A stretch of DNA of 62,817 nt, the filler included, from Deltaproteobacteria bacterium (GTDB taxonomy: Bacteria > JAUYMQ01), in NCBI GenBank assembly GCA_030698575.1. It is 6 parts of 6 records of this genome, joined end to end, with 100 filler letters (N's around TTAATTAATTAA, not from the genome) between each part and the next. Parts side by side here need not be neighbours in the genome. Positions count along the whole stretch, not along the records: positions 48,820 to 62,817 come from JAUYMQ010000265.1; 5 more parts are not named here. The stretch is one strand, 5' to 3'. The position numbers and the translations under genes are program-made. Positions 11,240 through 61,486 of this stretch are shown here, piece after piece. The notes beneath the pieces are model-generated. The model worked only from the letters and a program-made list of their open reading frames with translations, was not told the origin of the DNA and searched no databases. Each line of letters starts with the position of its first letter. Position 1 is the stretch's first letter.

Positions 11240-11453
11240 TCGGGTGAGACTCAGTCCTTCGTGGCGTCGAGGCTCACTACCGCCTCGTCGCCCACGACTT
11301 CCGCGCTGTGAACCGTCCCGCGGGGGACCGCCTGGCAGTCGCCAGCCTCGAGCTTGCGCCGCAGCGCCGCCTAGGTCACCGGCCCCTCTTTCGCCCTGTC
11401 CCACTTCTCCACGCCCATGTTCTCTGAAACTCTTCTGCAACCGGCGGTAACCT

Positions 11454-20659: not shown

Positions 20660-21500
20660 GCGTCGCGGTTGACCGCTGCTGCATCACGCCGCCCCGCTCA
20701 ACTGTTGTCGTCCGGACCAGTTCCTTCCCCTTATGGGCAACGAAAAACCTGACGCGGTTGACCTCGGCGTCGTCGCCGCCGAAGCACTGATGGATGGCCG
20801 CGAGAAATCGAACGTCTGCCAGATGGTGCGGCTCCGGGTTGGGGTTGTTTCGGACGCTCGGAATGGTCGCAGGGAACAGGTAGATGCATGGGGGCGTGAG
20901 GAGATACGGTCCCACTTCTGTTTGACGCCCCTCGCGGAGGGCCAGCTTCGGACAGGGACGCGCCACCGTCCCGCAGAGCCAATCCCACACGACCAGCCCG
21001 TCCACCTGCTTTTCGTTCGCAATGATCTCTGCGCTCAACCGTGTGTGAATGCCAGACCAGACGTTCCGCCGAGGATCGCCGCCCGGGTTTTCGCAAATAC
21101 TCCACAGAATGAACTCCTGGGCGTGGGCTGGGCGCTCGAAGATCGTCGTGTTGTTACCATCGAGGCAGCCCTTAAGCTCAATGACGCACACACGGCCATC
21201 GGGAAGGGTGACGGTGTAGTCGTGCCTGTTCGCGCCGCCGGACGATTCCCAATTGTAAATAAGCGCACGGTCCTGCATATGGTTCAGGACCAACCGCACG
21301 AAGTCGCGCTTCGGGTTCATCGTCGCAGCGAACTGCCCGCGGAGACGTTCAATCACGCCACGAAACAGGCCGCCTTGGTAGAAATCCCTCTCGGACAGGC
21401 CATGAGTGCCGAGCGTGTGAGCCTCGGTCCGAAACACCTCGGCCAACTCGACGATTTGCTTCTTGAGATCCTTGTTCCGCTGGCAGGGAATGACGCTCAT
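20643..21500 (-). CDS. Putative type II restriction endonuclease (PD-(D/E)xK)
   Basis: HDYTV...VIELKG motif; translationally coupled to the C5 methyltransferase. Confidence 0.65.
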   Translation of the reverse strand: MSVIPCQRNKDLKKQIVELAEVFRTEAHTLGTHGLSERDFYQGGLFRGVIERLRGQFAATMNPKRDFVRLVLNHMQDRALIYNWESSGGANRHDYTVTLPDGRVCVIELKGCLDGNNTTIFERPAHAQEFILWSICENPGGDPRRNVWSGIHTRLSAEIIANEKQVDGLVVWDWLCGTVARPCPKLALREGRQTEVGPYLLTPPCIYLFPATIPSVRNNPNPEPHHLADVRFLAAIHQCFGGDDAEVNRVRFFVAHKGKELVRTTTVERGGVMQQRSTATPIRRR

Positions 21501-22744
21501 GCGACCAGGTGAATCACTGTCGCTTTCGGTGCCAAGATCGGTTCGAGGATTTGATCGGCTAAGTGCCGAACGACCGGGAGAACCACACCGTCGCCCGTGA
21601 GGTGATACGCCTCGTTGTAGTTCTCTGGCAAAGCGTAGCTGTCGGGCAAGCCCATCAAGCGGGCTGTCTCTCGACTAGAGAGCAAGCGCGAGCGCACCTT
21701 CTCGCCTTTCACGACGACGATTAATTGTCGGCTGGACCCGCCCGACGACGTGCGGAGACAGCCCGCCACCCCGTCAAATCGGACTTCGGCCCGCTGCACC
21801 TTATCCCCGTCATCGTCATGGCGGGTGCGCTTGTAGACAGTACCGACCGTGAGCTTGCCCGCCTTCTTCGCGTCACGGACCTTGTCCATGTTGCGCTTGT
21901 TCATCATGCCGAGGAGTTTGGCCGTTTCGTCCCGCGTGTGCCACGCAACGCTCGACGGTTCATCCTCAATGAGGTCCTTCAACCGAATCGTGCGCCGCGC
22001 GGGGGCGGCCATATTCCACCACACCCAATGCTGGCGCGTTTCCTCGTCCAGCCGGCCGTGCGCCGTGCGCAGTGCGCGCGAATGCCAGCGGGCCGTTGGC
22101 TCCGCCGCGACCAGAGCGGGCGGTATGGCAAGGTCGCCCGCCACGGCCACGATGAACAAGCGCGGCCGTGACTGCGGGACGAAGAGGGCGGCGTCAATTA
22201 CCAGTGCGCCGAAGTGGTAACCGGCATCCGCGAGCGCCTTGGCGATGGCGGTGAAGTCCTTCCCGCCGTGCGACGTGAGCGTACCGCACACATTTTCCAA
22301 GGCGACGACGCGAGGACCGCGACCCGCGCCGCTCAGTTTGGTGACCAGCTCCCAAAACGGCCAAAACGTCCCGGACCGGTCGCCCTTCAACCCCGCTCCC
22401 ATGCCAGCCAGCGAGAGGTCCTGGCACGGGAAGGACGCCCAAGCCAAGTCCGCGGAATCCCGAACCTCGGCGGCCTCAACGGTGCGCACGTCCTTCGTGA
22501 GAAGCGCGCCATCTCCCCAGTTCTGCCGGTAGATCGCGCTCTTCTTGAAGTCGAAATCATTGGCAAAGACGCAGCGCCATTGAGGACCGAGGCCAGCCCG
22601 GACCATGCCGCCGCCGGCAAAGAACTCAGAGAACGTGAACTGGTGGGCTTGGGCGGGAGCTAGTTCATGCGTGCTTGCAGTCACGGGCACCCCGAAGTCG
22701 AAAGTCACCGCTTTGGTGGCGCTAAGATACCACGAATCAGGCAC
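21497..22744 (-). CDS. DNA (cytosine-5) methyltransferase
   Basis: FFAGGG, FPCQDLS, ENV, QSRPR, RLMGLP, GDGV; true start may be slightly downstream. Confidence 0.95.
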
Positions 22745-22856
22745 TTACGCAATGCCCGGACGACGATTGACAGGCCGAACCGGCCCGCCTAGCTTCGGGT
22801 CCTATTCGGGGGTGGCCTTGCCTATGCGTGAGCGTTTGAGTAGATTGCCTGTTACA

Positions 22857-23705
22857 ATGAACGTCCTCACGACTGCTAAACGCGCCGCGATACTGGCGGC
22901 CCTCTGTGAAGGCTCCTCCGTCCGGGCAACCGCTCGGATCGTCCGCGTGTCGCGGACCACGGTCCTCAAGCTGCTGGTTGAAGTCGGGAAACTGTGCGCG
23001 ATCTATCAGGACCACACGCTGCGCAATCTGCCAGCGAAGCGGCTGGAGATTGACGAGTTGTGGGCGTTCGTCGGCGCGAAGGCGCGGCGGGCCACGCAGC
23101 CGGGCCATGGCGATATCTGGACGTTCACGGCCATTGACCCCGACTCGAAGCTGCTGGTCTCATGGCTAGTGGGAAATCGGACGCCGGAAGCTGCTGGCGA
23201 GTTCATGCGCGACGTAGCGTCGCGGCTCGCCAACCGCGTACAGGTAACCACGGACGGCCACCACATGTACCTGACCGCCGTGACGCAGGCTTTCCACTTC
23301 GACGTGGATTACGCCATGCTGGTGAAGCGGTACGGGCAGGCCGTGGGCGACGATACGAAGTACAGCCCGCCCGTGTGCGTCGGGGCGGACAAGACGTGGG
23401 TCAGCGGGAAGCCGGCCAGGGCGTTTGTGTCCACGTCCTACGTCGAGCGGTCCAACCTTACGGTGCGGATGCAGTCGCGCCGCTACACCCGACTCACCAA
23501 TGCGTTCAGCAAGAAGGTCGAGAATCACGCCCACGCCTTCGCCTTGTTCGCCATGCACTACAACTACTGCCGGGTCCACCAGACGTTGACCAAGCAGGTG
23601 GGCGGGATTCACACCACGCCAGCGATGGCGGCGGGGGTGACGGATCGGGTCTGGCGGGTGGAGGACATAATCTCCCTGCTGGACCCCGCTCGGCTGTTAC
23701 AATGA
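22857..23705 (+). CDS. IS1-family DDE transposase
   Basis: N-terminal [38 protein letters not shown]. Confidence 0.9.
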
Positions 23706-48632: not shown

Positions 48633-48719
48633 ATGGCGCTGCACATGCTCCGGGGCCCCTTCACCGTCGAGTCCTACCAGCGGCTCGCCGAGCTGGGCGT
48701 GCTCGGCGCGGACGAGCGC
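48633..48719 (+). CDS. Uma2 family endonuclease, N-terminal fragment
   Basis: MALHMLRGPFTVESYQRL, paralog of 47810; runs off the contig. Confidence 0.85.
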
Positions 48720-49106
48720 NNNNNNNNNNNNNNNNNNNNNNNNNNNNNNNNNNNNNNNNNNNNTTAATTAATTAANNNNNNNNNNNNNNNNNNNNNNNNN
48801 NNNNNNNNNNNNNNNNNNNGAATTCCAATTTGTGGCTGATAATCCGGGATTCGGCCGGCTTGCTCCGGAGGCCGTTCTGCCCGAGACTTCCCCGCCATCA
48901 GGGCCCTGTGTACAGTCCTGTGTGACACCGCGCTGGTCACGATCGCGCGGCTCCTGAAACCTGGCCGCTCGAAGCCCATTGCCGGGGGCTGTACGAGCTC
49001 CCCATGGCGGCGTGATTAGCAATTCGCCCTGTACAGCTAAACTCTCAACCCCAACTGCAGGATCGACATGAAATCCTGATCATAGTTGGGGAGCAGGTCA
49101 GGCGGC

Positions 49107-49724: not shown

Positions 49725-50545
49725 AATCAGGAGCCGCGTCGTGGGCGCGGATGGTTGTGAACAGCGAGCCCGATCGCGGTGGCGATCGGGTTCGTTGATT
49801 CTTGCCAAGTTTCCCGGACTTTCCGCAGCCCGCAATCTCGCGACGACTCTCTCTCCTTCCCAAGAATGTCCGACGATCGAGAACCGAGGCCTCTTCCGCC
49901 CGCTTGTCGTAGCGAGCCCGCCCTGGAACTCTCAATCCTCTCTACTCTCGCGAAGCAGCGGGGAAATAGCCTGTCTGCAGCTTGCGGCGGCCGGCGAGGG
50001 GAACAGAGGGAATCGAGAGCGGCCCCCACGCGGGGGACGCCGGATGGCCCCTCGGGCTGCGCCTGCGGCAACCGCGCCGACATCGCGCCGTTGCCGCAAC
50101 GTGATCCCGATTTATACCGAGATCGCCGATTCCGGATTTCGGTATCACTTTGGCGCCCACGGCCGCGCATTGGCGAGCCTCTGATATTCGCAACTCCCCG
50201 GAAGATTGAGACTAATCGACGGAGCAGGCGCGTCGCGGGGGTGTTATCCCGTGGGCTCATCCTCGGCATCATTCGGGCTCATTTTCGCCCAGTTCGTTAT
50301 CCCCCTGGCTTCAAGGATCGGACCGCCCGGATTCGAAATGCTCGGGCACTTTCGGGGCCCGAGATCACGGAGCGCATCGCATCGACCACCCAGCGAACCT
50401 TCGGCATCGCAGGCCCGCCGACCCCCCGTAACGTCCCGATAGAAGGGGCTATTTCAGACCTCCAATTGAGTTGACGTGTTCCCCGAACAGAGCGTGTATG
50501 GGCCCCCCACCAGGAGTCGCGATCCGTGCACAGGAGGACGCCCCC

Positions 50546-51061
50546 ATGAAGCCCTCGATCGCCGCCACCATCCGCGCGCTCCAGGCTATGAGCGTCTTCG
50601 ATCTCCAGGCCAAGTACCGCGAGGTCTTCGGAGAGGACACGCGGTCGCGGCACCGGACCTACCTCTGGCGACGGATTGCGTGGCGCATCCAGGCACTCGA
50701 AGAAGGGGGCCTTTCGGAGAGGGCGCGCCGTCGCGCCGCCGAGCTTGCCAACGAGGCCGACGTGCGCATCCGACCCCCGCGGGGTGCCTTCGAGGAAAAC
50801 CCTGCGCCCGCTTACGATCCGCCGCCGGTCTCCCGGGGCGGCCGCGACCCGCGTCTCCCGGCGCCGGGCACGCTGATCACCCGGGCGTACCGGGGGCAAG
50901 CGATCCGCGTCACCGTCCTCGAGAGAGGGTTCGAGTATGAGGGTCGCGTTTACCGATCACTCACGGCGGTGGTGGGCGAGGTCACGGGGTCGCACTGGAA
51001 CGGCTTCCAATTCTTCCGTCTCACGCAGGGGCGGTCGACGCCGAGGCGAAGGTGTCCCTAA
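50546..51061 (+). CDS. DUF2924 protein, copy 1 (3' end hit by an IS)
   Basis: LWRRIAWRIQA, PGTLITRAYRG, YRSLTA, HWNG. Confidence 0.88.
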   Translation: MKPSIAATIRALQAMSVFDLQAKYREVFGEDTRSRHRTYLWRRIAWRIQALEEGGLSERARRRAAELANEADVRIRPPRGAFEENPAPAYDPPPVSRGGRDPRLPAPGTLITRAYRGQAIRVTVLERGFEYEGRVYRSLTAVVGEVTGSHWNGFQFFRLTQGRSTPRRRCP

Positions 51062-52454
51062 CGTAAATTCCATCCGTCGTGATCTGAGTGGCCAATTCTA
51101 GCACCGTCCCCCGAAGAGATGCATCATCAAGGAACGATTTGAGGGATTGCTGCCCGGGTCTCCTGGCGGGGGATGGGTTCAGGGCAGAGTTCTGCCTGCG
51201 TCGGTTCGCCGGGAGAGACCTTCGAAAGCCACGGAGCGTGGCTTCACGCAGCTCGTTTGTAATGGTGGTGCAAGCCGCCGACGTGCGGGATGGCAATCAC
51301 ACGACCACGCCCGGGCTCGACTTTCCTCGGGATGGGCGCGTTGCGGTGCAGCGAGAGATGGGGCCGGACGCCGTGGTAGTAGCGGATGTAACTTTTGAGG
51401 AGGCGGCGGAGGTGATCCTCACCGAGCACGATGACGTGGTCCAGACATTCCCTCCGAATTGTTCCGATGACCCTCTCCACGAACGGGTTCTGCCAGGGTG
51501 ATCTCCGGCTTGTGACGAATTCCCGTATTCCCATGTTTTGAACCCTGCGCCGGAAGTAGCCACCGTAAATCCCATCACGATCCCGGATCAGGTATTTCGG
51601 GATTGGGCCATCGCCGGGAAAAGCCTCGACCATCTGCTGAGCCGTCCACTTGGCCGTAGGGTTCGAAGTGACGTTGAAATGAACGATGCGCCGACGGTCG
51701 TGGGAGAGGATCAGGAAGCAGTAGAGAAGCCGAAACGTGGCGGTGGGCACGACGAAGAAGTCGCAGGCGACGGTCTCGGGCAGATGATTCTTGAGGAAGG
51801 TGCGCCAGCGCTGAGAAGAGGGTCCGTGCCTCCGTCTGGGCAGATACTTCGCGACGGTGGTGTCCCGGACCTCGTAGCCGAGCAGGAGCAGCTCGGAAGT
51901 AATGCGCGGGGCTCCCCAGGTCGGATTATCGTTCGCCATCCGGTGGATCAGCGCGATGATCTCAGGGTCCAGCGGCGGTCGCCCCGGTTTTTTCCTTCTT
52001 GATTTCCATCTCCAGAAGGCCTTGAAGGCCTGGCGATGCCAGTGGACGACCGTTTCCGGTTTCACGAGGATCAGGCTGGACTCCCATTTTTCCCAGGCGT
52101 GCCTGAGAAAGACCCAGAAGAGCCGATCGCGCCGGCGGAGCTTCGGTCGTTTGACGCTTCGCCGGAGGACCGCAAGTTGCTGGCGCAGCGCGAGATTTTC
52201 GAGCACGAGGCCCGAGCGACCCTGGAAGAAGGCGCGGATGAGCGTGAGCACCATATGAAGGATAGCCATGGACGAAATCCGGGGCTGGGATCGAGGGGGA
52301 CGTGCCGTTGGGGAGTATGGAGGGCGGCCGGTGCGTCCGGCAAGGCGGGCTGTCTAGGGCCGAGCGAGCCGCAGATCGAGGGATTGAGGCGTCCAAGAAG
52401 CCGAGCGAAGATCACGAATGATTCCGCGGCGGACGTAGCTTACGGATAGGCACA
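51053..52454. mobile_element. Insertion sequence with integrase-core transposase
   Basis: Imperfect TIRs TGTCCCTAACGTAA and TTACGGATAGGCACA; no clear TSD. Confidence 0.7.
51244..52269 (-). CDS. Integrase-core (rve, DDE) transposase
   Basis: ACDFF, IRDRD, PWQNPFVERVIGTIRRECLD. Confidence 0.93.
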   Translation of the reverse strand: MAILHMVLTLIRAFFQGRSGLVLENLALRQQLAVLRRSVKRPKLRRRDRLFWVFLRHAWEKWESSLILVKPETVVHWHRQAFKAFWRWKSRRKKPGRPPLDPEIIALIHRMANDNPTWGAPRITSELLLLGYEVRDTTVAKYLPRRRHGPSSQRWRTFLKNHLPETVACDFFVVPTATFRLLYCFLILSHDRRRIVHFNVTSNPTAKWTAQQMVEAFPGDGPIPKYLIRDRDGIYGGYFRRRVQNMGIREFVTSRRSPWQNPFVERVIGTIRRECLDHVIVLGEDHLRRLLKSYIRYYHGVRPHLSLHRNAPIPRKVEPGRGRVIAIPHVGGLHHHYKRAA

Positions 52455-52774
52455 GGCGCCGGGCGACCAGCGTTCCTACCGCGAAAGCTGCTCAGGCTCG
52501 GACGGATTTTTTGAGCGGGACAGGCTTCGCTTGGGTTAGCCGGTGGGGAGCCTTTCCCTGATTGACTTCGGAAGAAGTTGTCCACTAAGCTAGGCGCTTG
52601 CGATGAACTCGGTGATCGCATTCCGCGCGGCGCTCATCGTTCCCGGCCCAGGGGGCTCTGCCCCAGCCCCCTTGCTCGTCTCCCTGTGAACCGAAATCGA
52701 AGCCTTAGGGAGTGGTCCCTGACCTATCCCCCCCTGCGCGCGGCCGTCAGACCAGCGCACGGGTCAGGTGTTCC

Positions 52775-55700
52775 ATGCTTGCTCGCCTCGCGGCCGCCGT
52801 GTTGCTGTTCGCCGGCGCGTTGTTCTGTCTTCCCGGCCAGGACGCCGCGGCGCAGGTCACCACCTGCGCGCAACTGTTCCCGGAGTCAGCCCCCATCTTC
52901 CGCGGCGTGACGGCGAACTTCGTGGCGTCGGGGGGCGGCGTCTTCTATTACCGGGTCGGCGTGGACACGGCCACGGGCATCAGCGGCGGCACCCACCTGG
53001 TGCTCAAGTACGATGTTGCGCCCGGGAGCACGGGCGGGAACACCTTCGTGGATTTCACGGCGGAGCTGAACAAGACGCACTACGAGACGGGCGGTGGTGC
53101 TCCGAACCCCCAGTACGGGCAGGTCCTCGTTTCCAGCGCGACGGGCGGGGCAATCACGCTGACGGCGTTCTTCACCTTTGGCATTGGTGGCATCTGTCTC
53201 GACGGGACCTACGAGATCCCGGCGGGCATCGAGGACCCGACGGAAGTCTGCGACGGCGTGGACAACGATGGAATTGGAGGAATTGATAATGTGCCCGGCG
53301 GGTGCAACGCCCAGCCGGTGCCTCCATGCCTGACGACCCTCAACTGCGCCCGCAAGCAGTGGAACGCCTGCGCGGACAGCACCCTCGGGCCCCTCGTGCC
53401 CTGCGCCGGGGGGATGTTCGACACCCGCTTCGGCTTCGAGCAACGCCGCATCACCCTCTTCGAGGCTTCCTCGCCCGGGCTTCCCCTTCGTTTCGAGCTT
53501 TTCTACAACAACCGCAACGAGACGGGGTCGGTCATTCCCGGGCGCTGGTTCACCGGCTATGACACGAAGCTCACGCTGCAGCCTGCGACGCCGACAAACT
53601 TCGTCGAAGTCCTCTGGCCCGACGGCACGCGTTCCCGGTATCTGGACACGGGGACCTGCACGAGCGGCCAGTGCCGGTTCGACGGCGTTCTCTCGGATGG
53701 CTCCTTCGTGAACCAGAACAAGCCAGGGCAGGTGATCCAGGGCTGGGATCTTCACGCCCAGGACGGGCTCGTCTACCACTTCGCGGCGGCGGGATATCTC
53801 GAGTCGATCCAGGACGGCAGGGGCAACAGCCTGACCGTCGCGCACGAGGACACCGCGAACCTCTCGCGGGTGACGAAGGTCTCGGACAACCACGGCCACA
53901 CGATCCTCCTGTCCTACGGAACCACGGGCGCCGACCTCGGCAATCTGCTGCAGGTGACCGACCCGGCCGGACGCACCTACGACCTCGCCTACGAGAACTT
54001 CCGGCTGAGACGCATCACGCTTCCCGCACCCACCCCCGTGGATCCCAGGCCGAGCTACGAGCTAACCTACGCGGACGACGGCGGATTCGATCAGGGCGGC
54101 TATCGGGACAACCTGACCAGGATCGAATTCCGGCGGGACGTGAACGATCCGGACCCACAGGTGGACCGGATCAACGGGAGGTGGAACTACGACAACCGGA
54201 GCCGCGTGGAGAGTGAAGAGGGGCCAGGAAGCTCTCTTGCGCGCACGGTTGGCTACGATACGGACCAGACGACCGTGACCGACTCCCGCGGGAACGACAC
54301 CGTCTACGGCTTCGACCTGACGAACGGCCTGACACTGACGACAACCATTCCCTGCGACACGGGCGATACCGAGAGCTGCCCGAGCGGCACGGCGACCTCG
54401 ACGCTGGTGCGAAACGCCCAAGGGCAGATCACGAGCCGGACCGACTTCCGAGGGACGGAGACCGTGTGGGCCGACCACGACGCGAACGGGGACCCGGGCA
54501 CGATCACGGAGGCAGTGGGCAAGCCGGAGGAGCGCACGAGCCAGTTCGGCTACCACCCGGAGCTTCACGTCCCGCTCTTTATCATCCGGACCAGCACGAT
54601 CCAGACGACCGAGAACAAGGTAACCATCTTCGACTACGAAGACCCGGCCACAGCGCCGGCCGACCCGCCCCTCAACCCGGCCCAGGAACTCGACCCCGCC
54701 GATTTCAACGATCCGGCCAATCTCACGAACCTCGTCCATCGCGTCATGGAGAGCGGCTGGACGCGGGACGTGGCGGGCAAACCCGTGCGCGTGGCCTACG
54801 TGACGAAATTTACTTACGACACCACCCACGGCCGGGTGACCACTATCGACGGCCCGCGCGGCGGCACGCCGAATGACGATACCGACTTCCTCTACTATCC
54901 AGACGACGCGTCCGAGGGGGTCAATAACCAAGGGCAGCTCAAGAAAGTCACGAACGCGCTGGGCCAGGAGACGACCTTCGACGGCTACGACGCCCTGGGG
55001 AACGTGCTCTCGGTCACGGACCCAAATGGCCTTGTGACGACGTTCACCTACGACGCGGCCGGCCGCGTCCGAGCCATCACACAAGTCAACGGGGGTAAGG
55101 ACGGAGCGGGACAAACGATCGACCTGGTGACCGAGTACGTCTACGAGGCGAACGGGAACCTCGACTACATCAAGCTCCCGCGGGGGAACTTCTACAACTA
55201 CCAGTACGACACGGCCAATCGCCTCGCGTCGATCACCCGGACGTTCACCCAGCCCTCGGGCCCTGCGGACACGCCCGCCGGCCAGACGATCCGCTACGGC
55301 TACGATACCGAGGGGAACCGTACTCGGGAGGAGGTGGCCCCGGGCGTCTCGGACCCGGAACTGCGCTTCACGGAGTTCGAGTACGACGCCCTGAACCGCC
55401 TCAAGCGCGCGTACAACCCGGTCTACGGCGAGCTTCCTTCGGCGACGGTCTACCGTGAGTCCATCTTCGACGCCAACGGCAACCGCAAAGCGCTCGACCT
55501 CTTCAAGGACTCGGGCGCCACCGACCTGCGCAGTACGGCCTTCCTGTTCGATCCCCTGAACCGGCTGGGGATGGTCACGCAGGACGCAAATCCGGATCCC
55601 GATGTTGAGACCCTCTACGCCTACGACACTCAGGATAACCTGACGAAGCTCACCGACGGGAAGAACCACGACACGGACTACGTGACAGACGACTTCGGCC

Positions 55701-58144
55701 GCCAGGTCGAGGTGGTCTCGCCCGACACGGGGACGACGCGGTTCGAATACGACGAGGCCGGCAACCTCATCGAGAAGGACCAGAACGGGCTCGCCACCGA
55801 GTACGCCTTTGACGCGCTGAACCGCTTGACCGATGTGAATTTTCCCTCGGACACGAGCCAGAACATCACCTATGTCTACGATAACCGTACCGACGGCCCC
55901 ACGCTTCCGCCCGCGGACGGCGACAACTGGGTGGGCCGGCTGGCCAAGATCACGGACGCTTCCGGCACAACCTACTTCTCCTACGACGAGCGCGGGAACG
56001 TGGTCCTCGAGGAGCGCCACCAGGGGTCGGTCACACTCACGACGACGTACTCGTGGGACGAGAACGGTAATCTGCTGGCGCTCACTTATCCGTCGGGGCG
56101 GAAGGTCAGCTACACCTACTACGGCGCGGCGAACGACCAGCCCCTTCTCGTGGGGATGATGCACCAGGGCCAGAACCGTCTCCTTGCCTCGGGCATTGTC
56201 TTCGAGCCCTTCGGCCCGCTCGCCTCGCTCCGCTACGGTAATGACTTGGTGAAGACCCGCACGTACGACGAGGCGGGACAACTGCTGACCCTTAAGGTAA
56301 AAGCAACGGGCGGGCCCACGGTGCTCTCGCTGGACTACACGTTCGACGAGACGGGGAACATCACGAGAATCGACGATCAGCTTGACGCCCTGCAGTCGAA
56401 GATCTACGAGCCGGACGGCTACGATAAATTGGATCGTCTCATAAAGGCGACGATCGGCGGCCTGGGGACTTTTCAATACACCTATGACGCTGTGGGGAAC
56501 CGCACCGAGGAGAACCACGACGGGGCGGTCACCACATACAATATCGTGACCACGAACAACCAGATCGACACCCTCTCCGGGGCCACCACGGCGACGTTCG
56601 GCTACGACGTCCACGGGAACACCACCACCGACGGCACGCTGACCTTCTCCTACCACCCGACCCATCAGCTGAAGGAGTTCACCGACCAGACGCCAACCGT
56701 GCTGGGCAGCTACCAGTACGACGGCCAGTCGCGCCGGACGGCCAAGACCGTGAATGGGCTCGCGCGGCTTTTCGCCTACGATACGGGCGCGCAGCTCATC
56801 GGCGAGTACGACGACGCGGGGAACGTGCTGAAGGAGTACGCCTACCTCGGGACGCAGCGCCTTGCGATGATCGATCACGACCAGGACGACGAGGGCATCC
56901 GGGACGAGGTGGACAACTGCCGGATCGTGGTGAATCCCACGCAGAGCGACGGGGACACGGATACCCTGGGAGATGCCTGCGATGCAGCCCCCTCGAATCC
57001 CGACCGGGACGGCGATGGACTCCTGGACGGGGAGGAAGATGCCGACAAGGATGGGCAGGTCAGCGCCGGGGAGACGGATCCGGACAACCCGGACACGGAC
57101 GGGGACAGCTTCAGCGACGGCGTCGAGGTCGCGGCCGGGACGGACCCGTTGGATCCGAACTCCTACCCGGGCGCGCCGACGGCGATACCGGCCCTCTCGG
57201 GGCCGGGCGTGGGGCTGGCCATCGTGCTGGGCCTCGGAGTGGTGTGGTTCGTGCGGCGCCGCTACCCGCGGGGCGGGACCATCGCGGGCTTCGTGCTGCT
57301 GGGGATCGGAGTGAGCTTGGTGGTCCCGGGAACAGTCACCTCGCAGGGAGGCGGTACACCGGAGCGTGTGTACTTCATCCACACGGACCATCTGGGGACG
57401 CCGCTGAAACTGACGGACGCCTCCAAGACGGTGGTGTGGAGCGGGACGGCGGAGCCGTTTGGGGAGACGGATACACAGGGCAGTAGCATTACATTTAATC
57501 CGAGATTTCCGGGCCAGTACGCGGACAATGAGGCGGGAATTCACTACAATTGGTTCCGATACTATGACCAAGAGACGGGGCGGTACAGCTCGGCTGATCC
57601 GATTGGTCAGTTAGGGGGACACCATCTTTACCACTACGCTCTGAACAACCCCATAAATGTTTTTGACCGCTACGGATTGATAAGTGCCGCGCTTGCCGGA
57701 AACGTGATCCGTGCAGTAGGTCGGTTAACTGGTCAAACCGCCACCGAAGCCCAGGTGGCAGGTAGCATGGCAAGCGCGGCAGTTGGGTTTGGGAATGATT
57801 TATCTTCAAGCTTTACGGGGGATCCGTCCATCGGTGACACGGTCGCTCAGGCAATGGGACTAGGCACCAGGAATGCGGCTACCATTGATGCATCGGTTAA
57901 TCTTGTGTCGGCGTCCGGTGCCTCAGATCTTGCTGCAGGAGCGTATGCGACCGCCGTTACTGGTGGGGTGTTCGCGACTGGCGTAGCCCTCAGTGGATCA
58001 GCAATCGCTGGATTCGAGCTGGGAAACTTTGCACGAAAAGCCTCGATTGCCACTTCGGGCGCTGACCCCGGCACGTTCTGGGGCGACTTGCTGTTCGATT
58101 ACCTATACGGTGATTCCAGTGAGGACGCGATTTGTGACGAGTAG
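52775..58144 (+). CDS. Secreted Rhs/YD-repeat protein with internal TSP3 repeats and TM hairpin, and a C-terminal toxin-like domain
   Basis: Signal peptide, many YD repeats, HTDHLGTP, FPGQY, RYY, DPIG, PINVFDRYGL. Confidence 0.93.
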   Translation: MLARLAAAVLLFAGALFCLPGQDAAAQVTTCAQLFPESAPIFRGVTANFVASGGGVFYYRVGVDTATGISGGTHLVLKYDVAPGSTGGNTFVDFTAELNKTHYETGGGAPNPQYGQVLVSSATGGAITLTAFFTFGIGGICLDGTYEIPAGIEDPTEVCDGVDNDGIGGIDNVPGGCNAQPVPPCLTTLNCARKQWNACADSTLGPLVPCAGGMFDTRFGFEQRRITLFEASSPGLPLRFELFYNNRNETGSVIPGRWFTGYDTKLTLQPATPTNFVEVLWPDGTRSRYLDTGTCTSGQCRFDGVLSDGSFVNQNKPGQVIQGWDLHAQDGLVYHFAAAGYLESIQDGRGNSLTVAHEDTANLSRVTKVSDNHGHTILLSYGTTGADLGNLLQVTDPAGRTYDLAYENFRLRRITLPAPTPVDPRPSYELTYADDGGFDQGGYRDNLTRIEFRRDVNDPDPQVDRINGRWNYDNRSRVESEEGPGSSLARTVGYDTDQTTVTDSRGNDTVYGFDLTNGLTLTTTIPCDTGDTESCPSGTATSTLVRNAQGQITSRTDFRGTETVWADHDANGDPGTITEAVGKPEERTSQFGYHPELHVPLFIIRTSTIQTTENKVTIFDYEDPATAPADPPLNPAQELDPADFNDPANLTNLVHRVMESGWTRDVAGKPVRVAYVTKFTYDTTHGRVTTIDGPRGGTPNDDTDFLYYPDDASEGVNNQGQLKKVTNALGQETTFDGYDALGNVLSVTDPNGLVTTFTYDAAGRVRAITQVNGGKDGAGQTIDLVTEYVYEANGNLDYIKLPRGNFYNYQYDTANRLASITRTFTQPSGPADTPAGQTIRYGYDTEGNRTREEVAPGVSDPELRFTEFEYDALNRLKRAYNPVYGELPSATVYRESIFDANGNRKALDLFKDSGATDLRSTAFLFDPLNRLGMVTQDANPDPDVETLYAYDTQDNLTKLTDGKNHDTDYVTDDFGRQVEVVSPDTGTTRFEYDEAGNLIEKDQNGLATEYAFDALNRLTDVNFPSDTSQNITYVYDNRTDGPTLPPADGDNWVGRLAKITDASGTTYFSYDERGNVVLEERHQGSVTLTTTYSWDENGNLLALTYPSGRKVSYTYYGAANDQPLLVGMMHQGQNRLLASGIVFEPFGPLASLRYGNDLVKTRTYDEAGQLLTLKVKATGGPTVLSLDYTFDETGNITRIDDQLDALQSKIYEPDGYDKLDRLIKATIGGLGTFQYTYDAVGNRTEENHDGAVTTYNIVTTNNQIDTLSGATTATFGYDVHGNTTTDGTLTFSYHPTHQLKEFTDQTPTVLGSYQYDGQSRRTAKTVNGLARLFAYDTGAQLIGEYDDAGNVLKEYAYLGTQRLAMIDHDQDDEGIRDEVDNCRIVVNPTQSDGDTDTLGDACDAAPSNPDRDGDGLLDGEEDADKDGQVSAGETDPDNPDTDGDSFSDGVEVAAGTDPLDPNSYPGAPTAIPALSGPGVGLAIVLGLGVVWFVRRRYPRGGTIAGFVLLGIGVSLVVPGTVTSQGGGTPERVYFIHTDHLGTPLKLTDASKTVVWSGTAEPFGETDTQGSSITFNPRFPGQYADNEAGIHYNWFRYYDQETGRYSSADPIGQLGGHHLYHYALNNPINVFDRYGLISAALAGNVIRAVGRLTGQTATEAQVAGSMASAAVGFGNDLSSSFTGDPSIGDTVAQAMGLGTRNAATIDASVNLVSASGASDLAAGAYATAVTGGVFATGVALSGSAIAGFELGNFARKASIATSGADPGTFWGDLLFDYLYGDSSEDAICDE

Positions 58145-58145
58145 T

Positions 58146-58394
58146 TTAAACGTCGTTTCGGTGAGTTTCCTTCGACGCATAATAGAGAAGAATACCGAGG
58201 AACAGAATGGTCCATGCGGCAGCGTACGCCCCATAGGGACCGATTAGGTATGCCTTCACAAAATGCAAGTGCTGCCCGAAAGCTGCAACGAGGATGAAGG
58301 CGAAAATCACCCCTGCACTGCCTAGTCCGACAACGAGCTGCTTTTGAGAAAGCGTGCCGCGGGGCGGATCGGTTCCTGTGCGATCCTCGCTCAT
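58146..58394 (-). CDS. Small two-TM protein, candidate immunity protein
   Basis: 82 aa; convergent, its stop 1 nt from the Rhs stop; lower GC like the toxin tip. Confidence 0.5.
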   Translation of the reverse strand: MSEDRTGTDPPRGTLSQKQLVVGLGSAGVIFAFILVAAFGQHLHFVKAYLIGPYGAYAAAWTILFLGILLYYASKETHRNDV

Positions 58395-59124: not shown

Positions 59125-59385
59125 ATGTTCGACCCATCCGATCCTTCCGCTAGCACCCCTGAAGATCGCACCCGCGAGATCGCGAGCATCCTCGCCACGG
59201 GCTATTTGCGCCTTTGCGCGATGGGGCTGCGTGAGGCCCCTACTCCCCCGATAGCAGGGCACAATTCGGCCGGAACCGATCCCCCGATCGAGCCTGGGAA
59301 CGGACTTGATACGTCTCCGAATCAGAGCGTGTATGGAGAGCGGGTTAACGCCGGAGAGGGCGGGCCCGATAGGGGGTGCCCATGA
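59125..59385 (+). CDS. Small protein preceding DUF2924
   Basis: EDRTREIASILATGYLRL; GGAGG RBS; ATGA overlap. Confidence 0.6.
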   Translation: MFDPSDPSASTPEDRTREIASILATGYLRLCAMGLREAPTPPIAGHNSAGTDPPIEPGNGLDTSPNQSVYGERVNAGEGGPDRGCP

Positions 59386-59906
59386 AATCAACGCTGGTCG
59401 CGGAGATCCGAGCGCTCCGAGAGATGAACGTTTCGGAGCTTCACGCCAAGTACCGCGAGGTGTTCGAGGAGGAGCCGCGCTCGCGCAACAAGGACTTCCT
59501 GTGGCGGCGGATCGCCTGGCGCATCCAGGCCCTGGAGCAAGGGGATATCTCGGAGCGAGCGCTGCACCGGGCCGCGGAGTTGGCCCGCGATGCGGACGTT
59601 CGGGTGCGGGCCCCGCGCGGCGCGTTTGAGAGCGATGCTCCCGGCGCGGTCGCGCGAACGCACCTTCACGCGTTCAAGGGTTCCCACGATGCCAGGCTTC
59701 CCGTGCCGGGAACGATCCTTACGCGTGTCTACCGAGGTCGGACCATTCGGGTCACGGTCCTCGATCGGGGCTTCGAGCACGAGGGGTGCGTGTACCGCTC
59801 CCTCACGGCGCTGACTCAGGCCATCACGGGGGCGCACTGGAACGGCTTCGAATTCTTCGGACTTCGCAAAGCTGAAAGGACAGGAACGCGAGGAGGAAAC
59901 CGGTGA
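59382..59906 (+). CDS. DUF2924 protein, copy 2
   Basis: Clear paralog of 50546-51061. Confidence 0.9.
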   Translation: MKSTLVAEIRALREMNVSELHAKYREVFEEEPRSRNKDFLWRRIAWRIQALEQGDISERALHRAAELARDADVRVRAPRGAFESDAPGAVARTHLHAFKGSHDARLPVPGTILTRVYRGRTIRVTVLDRGFEHEGCVYRSLTALTQAITGAHWNGFEFFGLRKAERTGTRGGNR

Positions 59907-61486
59907 AGAGGAACGGAAGCGGCGGGGCACCGCGCGCCGAGCAGGCGACCGTGCGCTGTGCCATTTACACACGGAAGTCGACGGACGAGGGCTTGGACCA
60001 GAGCTTCAACACGCTGGATGCCCAGCGCGAGGCGGCCGAGGCATTCATCCAGAGCCAACGGGCGGAGGGCTGGGAGATTCTCCCCGACCGCTACGATGAT
60101 GGAGGGTTCTCCGGGGCGACGCTGGAGAGGCCGGCCTTGAAGCGCCTTCTCGGGGACATCAAAGTGGGCAAGGTCGGCTCGGTGGTCGTCTACAAGGTGG
60201 ACCGGCTCACCCGGTCTCTCCTCGACTTCGCCCGCATCGTAGAGATTTTCGATAATCACCACGTGGGCTTCATCTCCGTGAGCCAGCAGTTCAACACGGC
60301 CACGTCCATGGGGAGGCTCATGTTGCACACCCTCCTCTCCTTCGCGCAATTCGAGCGCGAGATGATAGCGGAACGCACCCGCGACAAGATGTCGGCGGCG
60401 CGAAGGAAGGGGAAGTGGGTCGGGGGGATGCCGGTCCTGGGCTACGACGTGGCCTCCGAAGGCGGGCGACTGATCGTGAACGAGGCCGAGGCCGCGCGGG
60501 TCAGGGAAATCTTCGAAACCTACCTCCGGGAGCAATCGCTCGCTGCGACAGCGGCCGACCTGCATGCACGGGGCTGGACCCTGAAGTCGTGGACCACGAA
60601 GGAAGGGCGGCACCGTGCCGGTCGTCCCTTCAACAAGTCGACTCTCTTTGCGCTCCTCTCGAACGTCATCTACCTCGGGCAGGTCAACTACAAGGGGACC
60701 CTCTACCCCGGCGAGCATCCCGCCATCGTTGATCCGGAGGTCTGGCGGAAGGTCCACGAAGTGCTCCGTCACAACGGCAGGACGGGCGGCAGCGGGGTGC
60801 GGAACAAGCACGGGGCCTTGCTCAAGGGCCTGCTTCGATGCACGCCGTGCGAGGCCCCGATGGTGCATTCGTACACGGTCAGGGGCCGGAAGCGATACCG
60901 CTACTACGTCTGCGGTCGGGCGCAGAAGGAGGGATGGGCCTCGTGCCCCTCGAAGTCGGTTCCGGCCGCGGAAGTCGAGCGGTTCGTCGTCGATCGGATA
61001 CGCGCCCTGGGGCAGGACGAGGGATTGCTTGAGGAGACGCTGCGGCAGGCCCGCATCCAAGGCGCGTCAGAGGTAAGGGCCATCGAGGCCGAGCAGGAAG
61101 CACTTCGCACGGAGTTGAAAGGTCGAAACGCAGAGATTCAACGCAGCCTACAAGGGGATAACGGCGCGAGCGTCGATCCCGATCGGCTCGCTAGCCTTGA
61201 AGGCCAGGTCCGCATCGTCGAAGAGAAGCTGGCGGAAGCCCGGGAGCGGCTGGAGGCGGAATGCGGACAGATGGTGGACGAGCGGGATCTGACCGCGGCC
61301 CTCTCTCTTTTCGACCCGGTCTGGGATGCTCTCTTCCCGCGGGAGCAAGCGCGAATCATGCGCCTCCTCTTAGAGGGCGTCGGCTACGACGGCGGCGAGG
61401 GCATGCTGGCCCTCACCTTCCGGCCGGCGGGGATCACGGCGCTGGGTCGTGAGGGGAGCGCGGGGGGACAGGAGGTGGCACGGTGA
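59903..61486 (+). CDS. Large serine recombinase
   Basis: CAIYTRKS, DRLTRS, recombinase domain, Zn ribbon CTPC...YYVC...C, coiled coil. Confidence 0.95.
   Translation: MKRNGSGGAPRAEQATVRCAIYTRKSTDEGLDQSFNTLDAQREAAEAFIQSQRAEGWEILPDRYDDGGFSGATLERPALKRLLGDIKVGKVGSVVVYKVDRLTRSLLDFARIVEIFDNHHVGFISVSQQFNTATSMGRLMLHTLLSFAQFEREMIAERTRDKMSAARRKGKWVGGMPVLGYDVASEGGRLIVNEAEAARVREIFETYLREQSLAATAADLHARGWTLKSWTTKEGRHRAGRPFNKSTLFALLSNVIYLGQVNYKGTLYPGEHPAIVDPEVWRKVHEVLRHNGRTGGSGVRNKHGALLKGLLRCTPCEAPMVHSYTVRGRKRYRYYVCGRAQKEGWASCPSKSVPAAEVERFVVDRIRALGQDEGLLEETLRQARIQGASEVRAIEAEQEALRTELKGRNAEIQRSLQGDNGASVDPDRLASLEGQVRIVEEKLAEARERLEAECGQMVDERDLTAALSLFDPVWDALFPREQARIMRLLLEGVGYDGGEGMLALTFRPAGITALGREGSAGGQEVAR

Follow-up and report, generated by a model that had tools for sequence, protein, structure and literature searches.

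The Rhs effectors of type VI secretion systems (T6SS), among them Tse15 (8uy4), Tse5 (8cp6), RhsP (8h8a/b), RhsA (7q97) and the Rhs proteins of Salmonella bongori and Advenella (8qj series), share a YD-repeat cocoon, a closing core and a polymorphic toxin; they fold in the cytoplasm and ride on PAAR or VgrG. A DPxGL-type motif ahead of the Rhs toxin domain is the site of autocleavage. How Rhs/YD-shell toxins are delivered without a T6SS is an open question, stated as such for the bacterial teneurin-like proteins (PMC13018210). According to that description, these proteins are exported by a signal peptide, are tethered to the surface by lipoprotein or S-layer domains and have no dedicated injection machine, their delivery route being given as unknown; the Gram-positive WapA is likewise presented as a Sec-exported YD-shell toxin (PMC12704120). 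Here we analyse an Rhs polymorphic toxin gene (52712..58144, plus strand) in a 62,817-nt stretch of DNA from a deltaproteobacterial assembly (GCA_030698575.1), hereafter the window. Its product has the cocoon, core and polymorphic toxin of the T6SS effectors, from which it differs by a Sec signal, by the absence of PAAR and VgrG, and by an insert of 162 aa at the junction of shell and core that combines stalk, anchor and a signal-like segment. This architecture, which recurs in other lineages and is apparently undescribed, probably serves to export the protein in two steps.

The insert between shell and core

The toxin gene is a single open frame of 1810 aa from a GTG start; the database copy (P0003) is 100% identical, begins at M22 (window position 52775) and comprises 1789 aa. 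Hydropathy after Kyte and Doolittle, computed in a 19-residue window, picks out three strong segments, at residues 22-40 (2.26, followed by DAAA↓QV; arrows mark putative cleavage sites), 1496-1514 (1.91) and 1524-1542 (2.17). The first of these belongs to an N-terminal Sec signal peptide (52775..52852, plus strand like all parts of the gene; residues 22-47, MLARLAAAVLLFAGALFCLPGQDAAA↓QV), whose cleavage site is read from the sequence. It is followed by the Rhs/YD-repeat shell, which Pfam, AlphaFold2 (AF2) and structure matches trace as far as its final strand, ...TQRLAMI, behind which the insert begins (53459..56875); RHS_repeat (PF05593) matches nine stretches of the whole protein with 166 bits. 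Behind the insert, a linker QGGGTPE leads into the Rhs-associated core (together 57344..57679, residues 1545-1656, ending ...NPINVFDRYGL), which is recognized by RHS (PF03527; residues 1553-1586, 48.2 bits at a cut-off of 27.9) and by the NCBIfam model Rhs_assc_core (TIGR03696; 1581-1656, 72.3 bits at a cut-off of 32.5). The Pfam scan finds neither a PAAR nor a VgrG domain in the 1810 aa, in agreement with an original prediction, made from the DNA sequence, of a Sec-exported Rhs cage that lacks both.

The insert (56876-57361) translates in frame into 162 residues between ...EYAYLGTQRLAMI and ERVYFIHTDHLGTP. That these flanks normally lie only a few residues apart had been part of the same prediction, and ordinary Rhs sequences (P0229, P0150) indeed have 8-15 residues there; in the classical Rhs proteins of two genomes (G402, G406), no frame matched by the anchor pattern has a hydrophobic segment at the junction. 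The insert opens with acidic repeats of the Ca-binding TSP3 type (56876..57172, residues 1389-1487), which we read as a stalk. Their predicted TSP3 identity is borne out by TSP3_bac (PF18884), which matches residues 1461-1482 above its gathering cut-off of 25 bits, scoring 30.2 bits when the entire protein is scanned and 34.2 for the insert by itself; the NCBIfam models CglD and MtsC match this part partially. Next comes a tripartite anchor, delimited by hydropathy and conservation, of APTAIPALS, a 21-residue transmembrane (TM) helix and RRR (57173..57262, residues 1488-1517). The loop YPRGG (57263..57277, residues 1518-1522), predicted by the positive-inside rule to be cytoplasmic together with RRR, connects this helix 1 to a second hydrophobic, signal-peptide-like segment TIAGFVLLGIGVSLVVPGTVTS (57278..57343, residues 1523-1544; hydropathy 2.17). 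This helix 2 has an h-region, then a conserved Pro and V-T-S↓QGG, its end reading ...VVPGTVTS.

Can a cage that is interrupted in this way still close? An AF2 model of residues 640-1810, built on a 31-sequence alignment, reached a mean predicted local distance difference test score (pLDDT) of 74 and a predicted TM-score (pTM) of 0.71. Strands are confident up to residue 1388 (model residue 749), and a strand picks up again at residue 1552 (model residue 913) with a pLDDT of ~90; in between, at low to moderate confidence, the insert forms two helices, 1498-1517 and 1519-1533, and at the far end the toxin domain stays below 35. The model matches Tse15 (8uy4_A) with a Z score of 37.1 and a root-mean-square deviation (rmsd) of 2.6 Å over 713 aligned residues (model 31-1017 on chain 611-1395), the T6SS Rhs cocoons as a group with VIA Z scores of 33-38 (rmsd 2.5-5.5 Å, ~700 residues), the TcB-TcC cocoons of Tc toxins with Z ~35 (2.3-2.8 Å; TcdB2-TccC3, 2.5-2.8 Å) and, comparing the shell alone, the teneurin-like 9ifo_A with Z 31.6; Foldseek E-values against solved cocoons lie around 1e-43. 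Shell strands are confident on either side of the insert, and solved Rhs and Tc cocoons (Z 33-38) superpose on the model as one body across it. The shell is thus predicted to be intact despite the insert, which would point outward from the cocoon.

The insert is a family trait. A search with residues 1340-1620 returned 1609 matches, and among the best 120 of these, 11, the window's protein included, span 74% or more of that query; the remaining listed matches hit the TSP3 part only and were excluded from the family. Searching 1.84 billion representatives with hairpin and core adds P0123, P0124, P0125, P0127 and P0165, a metagenome scan contributes at least two members (L089, L090) among 80 loci listed, and a scan of genome contigs yields, among 79 loci, a full-length member (L001) and a distant hairpin form (L075), the rest being TSP3 proteins or classical Rhs. 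The sole whole genome examined that contains a family member is a metagenome-assembled genome (G001), which we use as a stand-in for the window's genome; within a sample of 401 genomes of its phylum, the full insert occurs in G001 only, seven others matching the TSP3 part alone. At least 17 homologues beyond the window keep insert and hairpin. The ten full-coverage homologues are 41-71% identical to the window over the region. Full-length members of the family open with signal peptides and, as is usual for polymorphic toxins, close with unrelated toxin domains. With the window included, all 18 family sequences open helix 1 with [IV]P and continue with another, shorter apolar segment that leads into the core, and 17 of the 18 place a cluster of at least three R/K behind helix 1 (P0165 has PHVH instead). 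The apolar spans measure 19-26 residues in helix 1 and 10-24 in helix 2 (15 sequences parsed by script, the other three by eye). Within the 11-sequence alignment, P1489, P1493, R1515 and R1517 are invariant, as are many Asp, Cys and Pro columns of the stalk, while the helix residues vary. The internal two-helix hairpin with its basic loop, in frame as originally described, is thus a conserved element.

That the junction is a misassembly or a chimera, or a two-gene fusion in decay, we consider extremely unlikely. For such an artefact speak the origin of the source record in a metagenome assembly and, in a single contig of one public run (X2), a low-support joint with a side of 27 that skips 57052-57427; we read this joint as derived from a relative or a repeat. 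Against it stand public-run contigs compared over 56500-57800. Run X1 may represent the sample of origin, and its independent assembly contains one 618-nt contig that spans 56818-57435 and both insert borders with 0 differences; a contig of X2, from the same study, crosses the left border, and contigs of two other studies cross the right one (X3, 57324-57474; X4, 57333-57462) with 1-5 differences. Moreover, the open frame is intact in 17 homologues on separate contigs, and the G+C content at third codon positions (GC3) of the insert (0.86) agrees with that of the gene (0.82), which in turn resembles the other genes of the window. Bridging contigs and the at least 17 homologues that keep the hairpin argue that the insert is neither chance nor chimera, which settles in its favour the check for a false junction that the original prediction had called for. 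The X2 data also contain, over 56978-57198, a diverged second copy (33 differences in 221 nt) whose loose end encodes a helix 1 like that of P0005, so that paralogues or strains with different hairpins coexist in the same sample series.

The same junction in other Rhs lineages

Arrangements of the same logic, made of different parts, occupy the equivalent position in unrelated Rhs lineages. The distant form L075 (genome G404), which lacks TSP3 repeats, has TPLG, a TM helix and HRRR, and then a segment that ends PAEA↓C just before ISYFHYDHLGSP. Two genomes, G421 and G407, from which four full genes and one, respectively, were inspected, have a first type (A) with a DUF11-like domain followed by a CFI_box_CTERM match of 95.3 and 93.6 bits (cut-off 40) and then by a signal peptide ending NASA↓DQIYYVHTDHL or ATQA↓EELYY. 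A second type (B), found in G421, has a DUF11 repeat (25 bits), AAFGGAFG, a TM helix and basic residues; this anchor resembles GlyGly-CTERM at 13.2 bits, below the cut-off of 15.5, and the signal peptide behind it ends TSQA↓EQIYY. The textbook AxA sites of these sister lineages lie 2-5 residues ahead of the core, and similar ones occur in the family to which the window belongs, in another of its clades (AWA↓A in P0051, ALA↓S in L090). In G421 (loci L198, L199, L200 and L202), a genome of 4.6 Mb, the Rhs core is matched 17 times. Eleven of these matches fall in open frames of 1231-1712 aa, with internal anchors of CFI-box-CTERM or GlyGly-like type, and all four CFI-box matches of the genome fall in Rhs-type frames. 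One of its proteins has the same sequence as P0167, a protein assigned by NCBI to a cultured gammaproteobacterium, making experiments feasible. At L200 an Rhs copy is interrupted by an inserted gene.

Shell and core also occur apart. At L203 (genome G430), a shell gene of 1401 aa with a signal peptide has no TM helix at its end; it shares ATGA with the start of a second gene, of 245 aa, whose product, MNNARIIFTLFSIRPGIALFFMLWCCSAAVSA↓GTLYYVHTDHLGTP..., consists of signal peptide (AVSA↓G), core and toxin; this is a translationally coupled two-gene form in which shell and core-toxin each have a signal peptide. L204 (G408) is similarly split, its shell ending in a CFI-box and TM helix. The split of L204 lies at an A7 run that could reflect a frameshifted pseudogene or sequencing error, or else a slippery site giving split and fused products. 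Among the 105 representatives that match the core pattern (43 others do not match and are outside the count), 25 are short open reading frames (ORFs) of 145-310 aa that comprise signal peptide, core and toxin: P0134, P0153, P0158, P0162, P0168, P0171, P0173, P0177-P0179, P0191, P0192, P0210, P0219, P0223, P0226, P0241, P0242, P0244, P0252, P0253, P0255 and P0258-P0260. The genomic context was seen for one of them, the P0260 type, which is the second gene of L203. This class seems to be common, and we met no account of it in open-access papers or bioRxiv preprints. Core-toxin cassettes with a signal peptide of their own can apparently be fused, split or swapped where shell and core meet, as at a modular break point.

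Probable two-step export and its alternatives

What could such a hairpin do for a toxin that has to close its cage? The reading that we favour, and hold to be probable, sees a T6SS-independent, Sec-exported Rhs toxin that bears a C-terminal-type surface-protein module, stalk plus anchor, and an internal signal-like segment at the shell-core loop, and that is exported in two steps. The N-terminal signal peptide would start Sec export of ~1480 residues, shell and stalk, until helix 1 acts as a stop-transfer sequence and anchors the chain, with RRR remaining in the cytoplasm. Helix 2 would then restart export of core and toxin, and the cocoon would be closed at the outside of the cytoplasmic membrane. 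Probably helix 2 would subsequently be cut by signal peptidase, yielding a two-chain cocoon tethered via stalk and helix 1 alone; a dedicated sorting enzyme might afterwards cut at the [IV]P[AT]L motif too, though the family data lend this no support. This scenario builds on the anatomy of the protein and the extent to which it is conserved, on a shell predicted to be intact, on similar architectures in other lineages and on the split two-gene form; from these we infer the topology, both cleavages and all of the delivery to a target cell.

The cut behind helix 2 deserves particular attention. Its n- and h-regions fit a signal peptide, with V-T-S↓Q as the c-region in the window, and both the AxA sites of the sister lineages and the coupled two-gene form point to helix 2 as an internal signal peptide and to a possible split of the chain. 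Judged by these sequences, lineages that have AxA sites are likely to be cut there, and a cut is plausible in the clade of the window with its VTS↓Q. It is also suggested by the stalk (~100 aa; TSP3 here, DUF11 elsewhere), which would give reach only if the link of ~10 residues between helix 2 and core were severed. Of the earlier proposal that the cage may be released or split by an exosortase or a signal peptidase, the signal-peptidase part thus gains support at helix 2, whereas the sorting-enzyme part does not: G001 shows no exosortase match and no rhombosortase above cut-off.

Several observations weigh against this scenario. The pLDDT of both hairpin helices is just 40-58, and the topology rests on hydropathy and the positive-inside rule. 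The register of the clade, P-x-x-[VLP]-x-[S/P/L]↓QGG, is not textbook, with Pro or Leu at -1 in P0005, P0006, P0008, P0123 and P0124; signal peptidase I disfavours both residues at this position, which argues against its action on these five members. The closest named relatives (44-50% identity) of the RNase R encoded on the window's first contig are of deltaproteobacterial type, and in a diderm host of that type an inner-membrane tether would leave the cocoon periplasmic, with no outer-membrane route evident. Parts of the comparative evidence are similarly ambiguous: the CFI-box forms hold a 33-residue hydrophobic stretch that leaves the number of membrane passes uncertain, the split of L204 falls at its A7 run (11318-11342, where the ORFs overlap) and looks like a frameshift, P0167 is a piece of an Rhs gene disrupted by an insertion sequence, an orphan cassette of G421 (L202, 14014-14895) begins inside helix 1, and the short signal-peptide core ORFs could in part be orphan cassettes or fragments.

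Would helix 1 not be better explained as a genuine sorting signal in mid-protein, as the original prediction had it when it named an IPTL-CTERM-like motif and an exosortase? A dedicated enzyme would then cut at helix 1 and move the shell to the cell surface, the hairpin being discarded, a process compatible with two-step export as an extra step. Helix 1 with its surroundings has the tripartite design of a sorting signal, motif, TM helix and basic cluster, in which a variable helix is flanked by an invariant motif Pro and invariant Arg residues. All ten family segments that we scored (motif, helix and basic cluster, against NCBIfam) draw sorting-signal models only, all below threshold, the commonest being midcut_by_XrtH (NF033207) in six of ten; a true CFI-box-CTERM sits at the equivalent position in G421 and G407, alongside a rhombosortase of 134.8 and 144.5 bits, above cut-off, and exosortases are present in five of five genomes of the other lineages. 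Yet no segment of the ten reaches any curated cut-off. IPTL_CTERM (TIGR04174) matches one (L001, 16.8 bits against 20.5) and not that of the window, NF033207 stays at 12.5-18.1 bits (13.7-15.9 for the window) against a cut-off of 45, the remaining matches are to mixed models, CFI-box-CTERM (NF041770, cut-off 40 bits) does not match the window, and no sorting-signal model passes its cut-off when hmmscan is run on the entire protein, on the insert or on shorter pieces. An IPTL-CTERM is C-terminal, while here 293 residues follow RRR. Sorting systems usually serve several substrates per genome, whereas a six-frame search of G001 finds at E <= 1 a single IPTL-like match, the Rhs site itself, with 15.5 bits. 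Within the incomplete data on this family, neither Exosortase_EpsH (PF09721; no match) nor a rhombosortase above cut-off is found in G001, no exosortase or other sorting enzyme is among the 40 scanned ORFs of the 62.8-kb window, and exosortases are common in such genomes, which makes their presence in the other lineages non-specific. Despite its tripartite design, helix 1 therefore falls short of an IPTL-CTERM in score, in position and in multiplicity per genome, and the IPTL-CTERM identity has to be given up; exosortase co-occurrence finds no support in G001, and a mid-protein sorting signal of one kind or another we consider rather unlikely.

The lack of an exosortase match and of an above-threshold rhombosortase in G001 would suit a permanent, uncleaved two-helix anchor, with the finished cocoon lying flat against the cytoplasmic membrane from outside. 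The hydropathy of both segments (1.91 and 2.17) suffices for a membrane span, the loop between them is basic, and five clade members have Pro or Leu at the putative -1. However, the apolar span of helix 2 is 10-16 residues in several members, short for a stable TM helix, canonical AxA sites exist in the sister lineages, a conserved stalk would lack reach with the 10-residue link uncut, and the two genes of L203 indicate that covalent continuity is dispensable; all told, we find this alternative unlikely. Much further down we place the notion that the hairpin is a translocation device for the membrane of the target cell, in the manner of the N-terminal TM domains of prePAAR T6SS effectors. Four homologues (P0010, P0013, P0016 and P0123) are also hydrophobic right after the toxin cleavage site, but behind a Sec signal a 21-residue apolar helix with RRR would, by established Sec biology, stop transfer in the producer, and the protein has no PAAR or VgrG domain, so that this function is very improbable. 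Returning to two-step export, its broadest extension would be a widespread, undescribed T6SS-independent class of Rhs proteins whose cocoon is built outside the cytoplasm from two separately translocated parts, encoded as two coupled genes or as a fusion through a hairpin of sorting signal and signal peptide, with the shell displayed at the surface by a rhombosortase, an exosortase or a new enzyme that recognizes a C-terminal-type signal in mid-protein; we offer this generalization tentatively and with considerable doubt.

Genomic setting and relation to known systems

The toxin domain behind the core (57680..58141) comprises 154 aa, is rich in Gly, Ala and Ser and belongs to no known family: it has no match in Pfam or NCBIfam, and its Atlas scores of at most 0.88 come with low recognition. 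Its boundary is marked by ...NPINVFDRYGL↓, and homologues with a common core bear unrelated C-terminal domains at this place. The strongly hydrophobic stretches right behind the autocleavage motif of P0010, P0013, P0016 and P0123 may help the toxin domains of these homologues to enter membranes. Abutting the stop codon of the Rhs gene, a convergent ORF of 82 aa (58146..58394, minus strand) encodes two hydrophobic helices; it has GGAGG before its ATG, no Pfam family and a GC3 of 0.58, lower than that of the host genes. It may be a candidate immunity protein for a membrane-active toxin, an assignment that we propose with reserve.

As a run of N around TTAATTAATTAA at 48719-48820 reveals, two contigs or more are joined in the window, so that the polysaccharide contig (1-48718) is linked to the Rhs contig (48821-62817) by binning only. 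At ~14.0 kb, the latter agrees with the 13,998-nt contig recorded for P0003. Upstream of the Rhs gene lie a DUF2924 gene (50471-51061) and an rve_3 transposase (51244-52269, minus strand), and downstream DUF2924 together with a serine recombinase (59376-61486). Over 252 nt the DUF2924 regions share 71% identity, and a 49-nt direct repeat with 78% identity is found near both ends of the Rhs contig (48850-48898 and 62411-62459); the toxin gene may reside in or between integrative elements. No T6SS gene is among the 40 scanned ORFs of the window, the scanned neighbours on the Rhs contig being transposase, DUF2924, serine recombinase and DUF2784, and no conserved accessory neighbour is among the 10 flanking ORFs. 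Elsewhere in the window, on its first contig, a gene for a C-5 cytosine DNA methylase (21497-22744, minus strand) adjoins an IS1-type transposase (22605-23705, plus strand), and a polysaccharide-synthesis cluster occupies ~26-45 kb (sugar transferase, Wzz, rml genes, glycosyltransferases and ATP sulfurylase).

Where does this leave the protein among the described systems? For the coupled genes of L203, and for the two-chain product that a cut behind helix 2 would generate, the closest precedent is the two-polypeptide cocoon of the Tc toxins, TcB-TcC (4o9x, 6h6g, 4igl). In Tc toxins, the split runs through the middle of the shell, both parts lack a signal peptide, and TcA is the docking partner of the cocoon. 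Of the sorting-signal models, the commonest weak match, NF033207 (six of ten segments, yet far below its cut-off), carries a name, 'midcut-by-XrtH', that presumably implies an exosortase-type signal in mid-protein. In open-access papers and bioRxiv preprints, we found no account of this family or of CFI-box-CTERM, no description of an internal anchor and signal-peptide hairpin in an Rhs protein or of a two-gene form of signal-peptide shell and core-toxin, and no link of Rhs proteins to exosortases or GlyGly-CTERM/rhombosortase. The order of motif, TM helix and Arg residues after an adhesin-type domain is common to IPTL-CTERM, GlyGly-CTERM/rhombosortase, PEP-CTERM/exosortase and MYXO-CTERM/myxosortase, the tripartite C-terminal design being described in bioRxiv 10.1101/2023.06.07.544157. 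From these the signal of the window's protein differs in being internal, below threshold and a single site in G001, and in having a signal-peptide-like segment behind it. If our reading is true, nature would here use sorting or anchor domains of C-terminal type within a protein, and a related lineage would do so with a bona fide CFI-box-CTERM. The teneurin-like proteins, lastly, have TIP, TTR and FN-plug domains flanking the YD shell and are tethered by other means; the word 'hairpin' is absent from PMC13018210, and the tether of the window's protein is an internal hairpin between shell and core. For such toxins, this architecture suggests a testable route: Sec export in two instalments, a cocoon closed outside the cytoplasm, and a tether of the kind used by sorted surface proteins.

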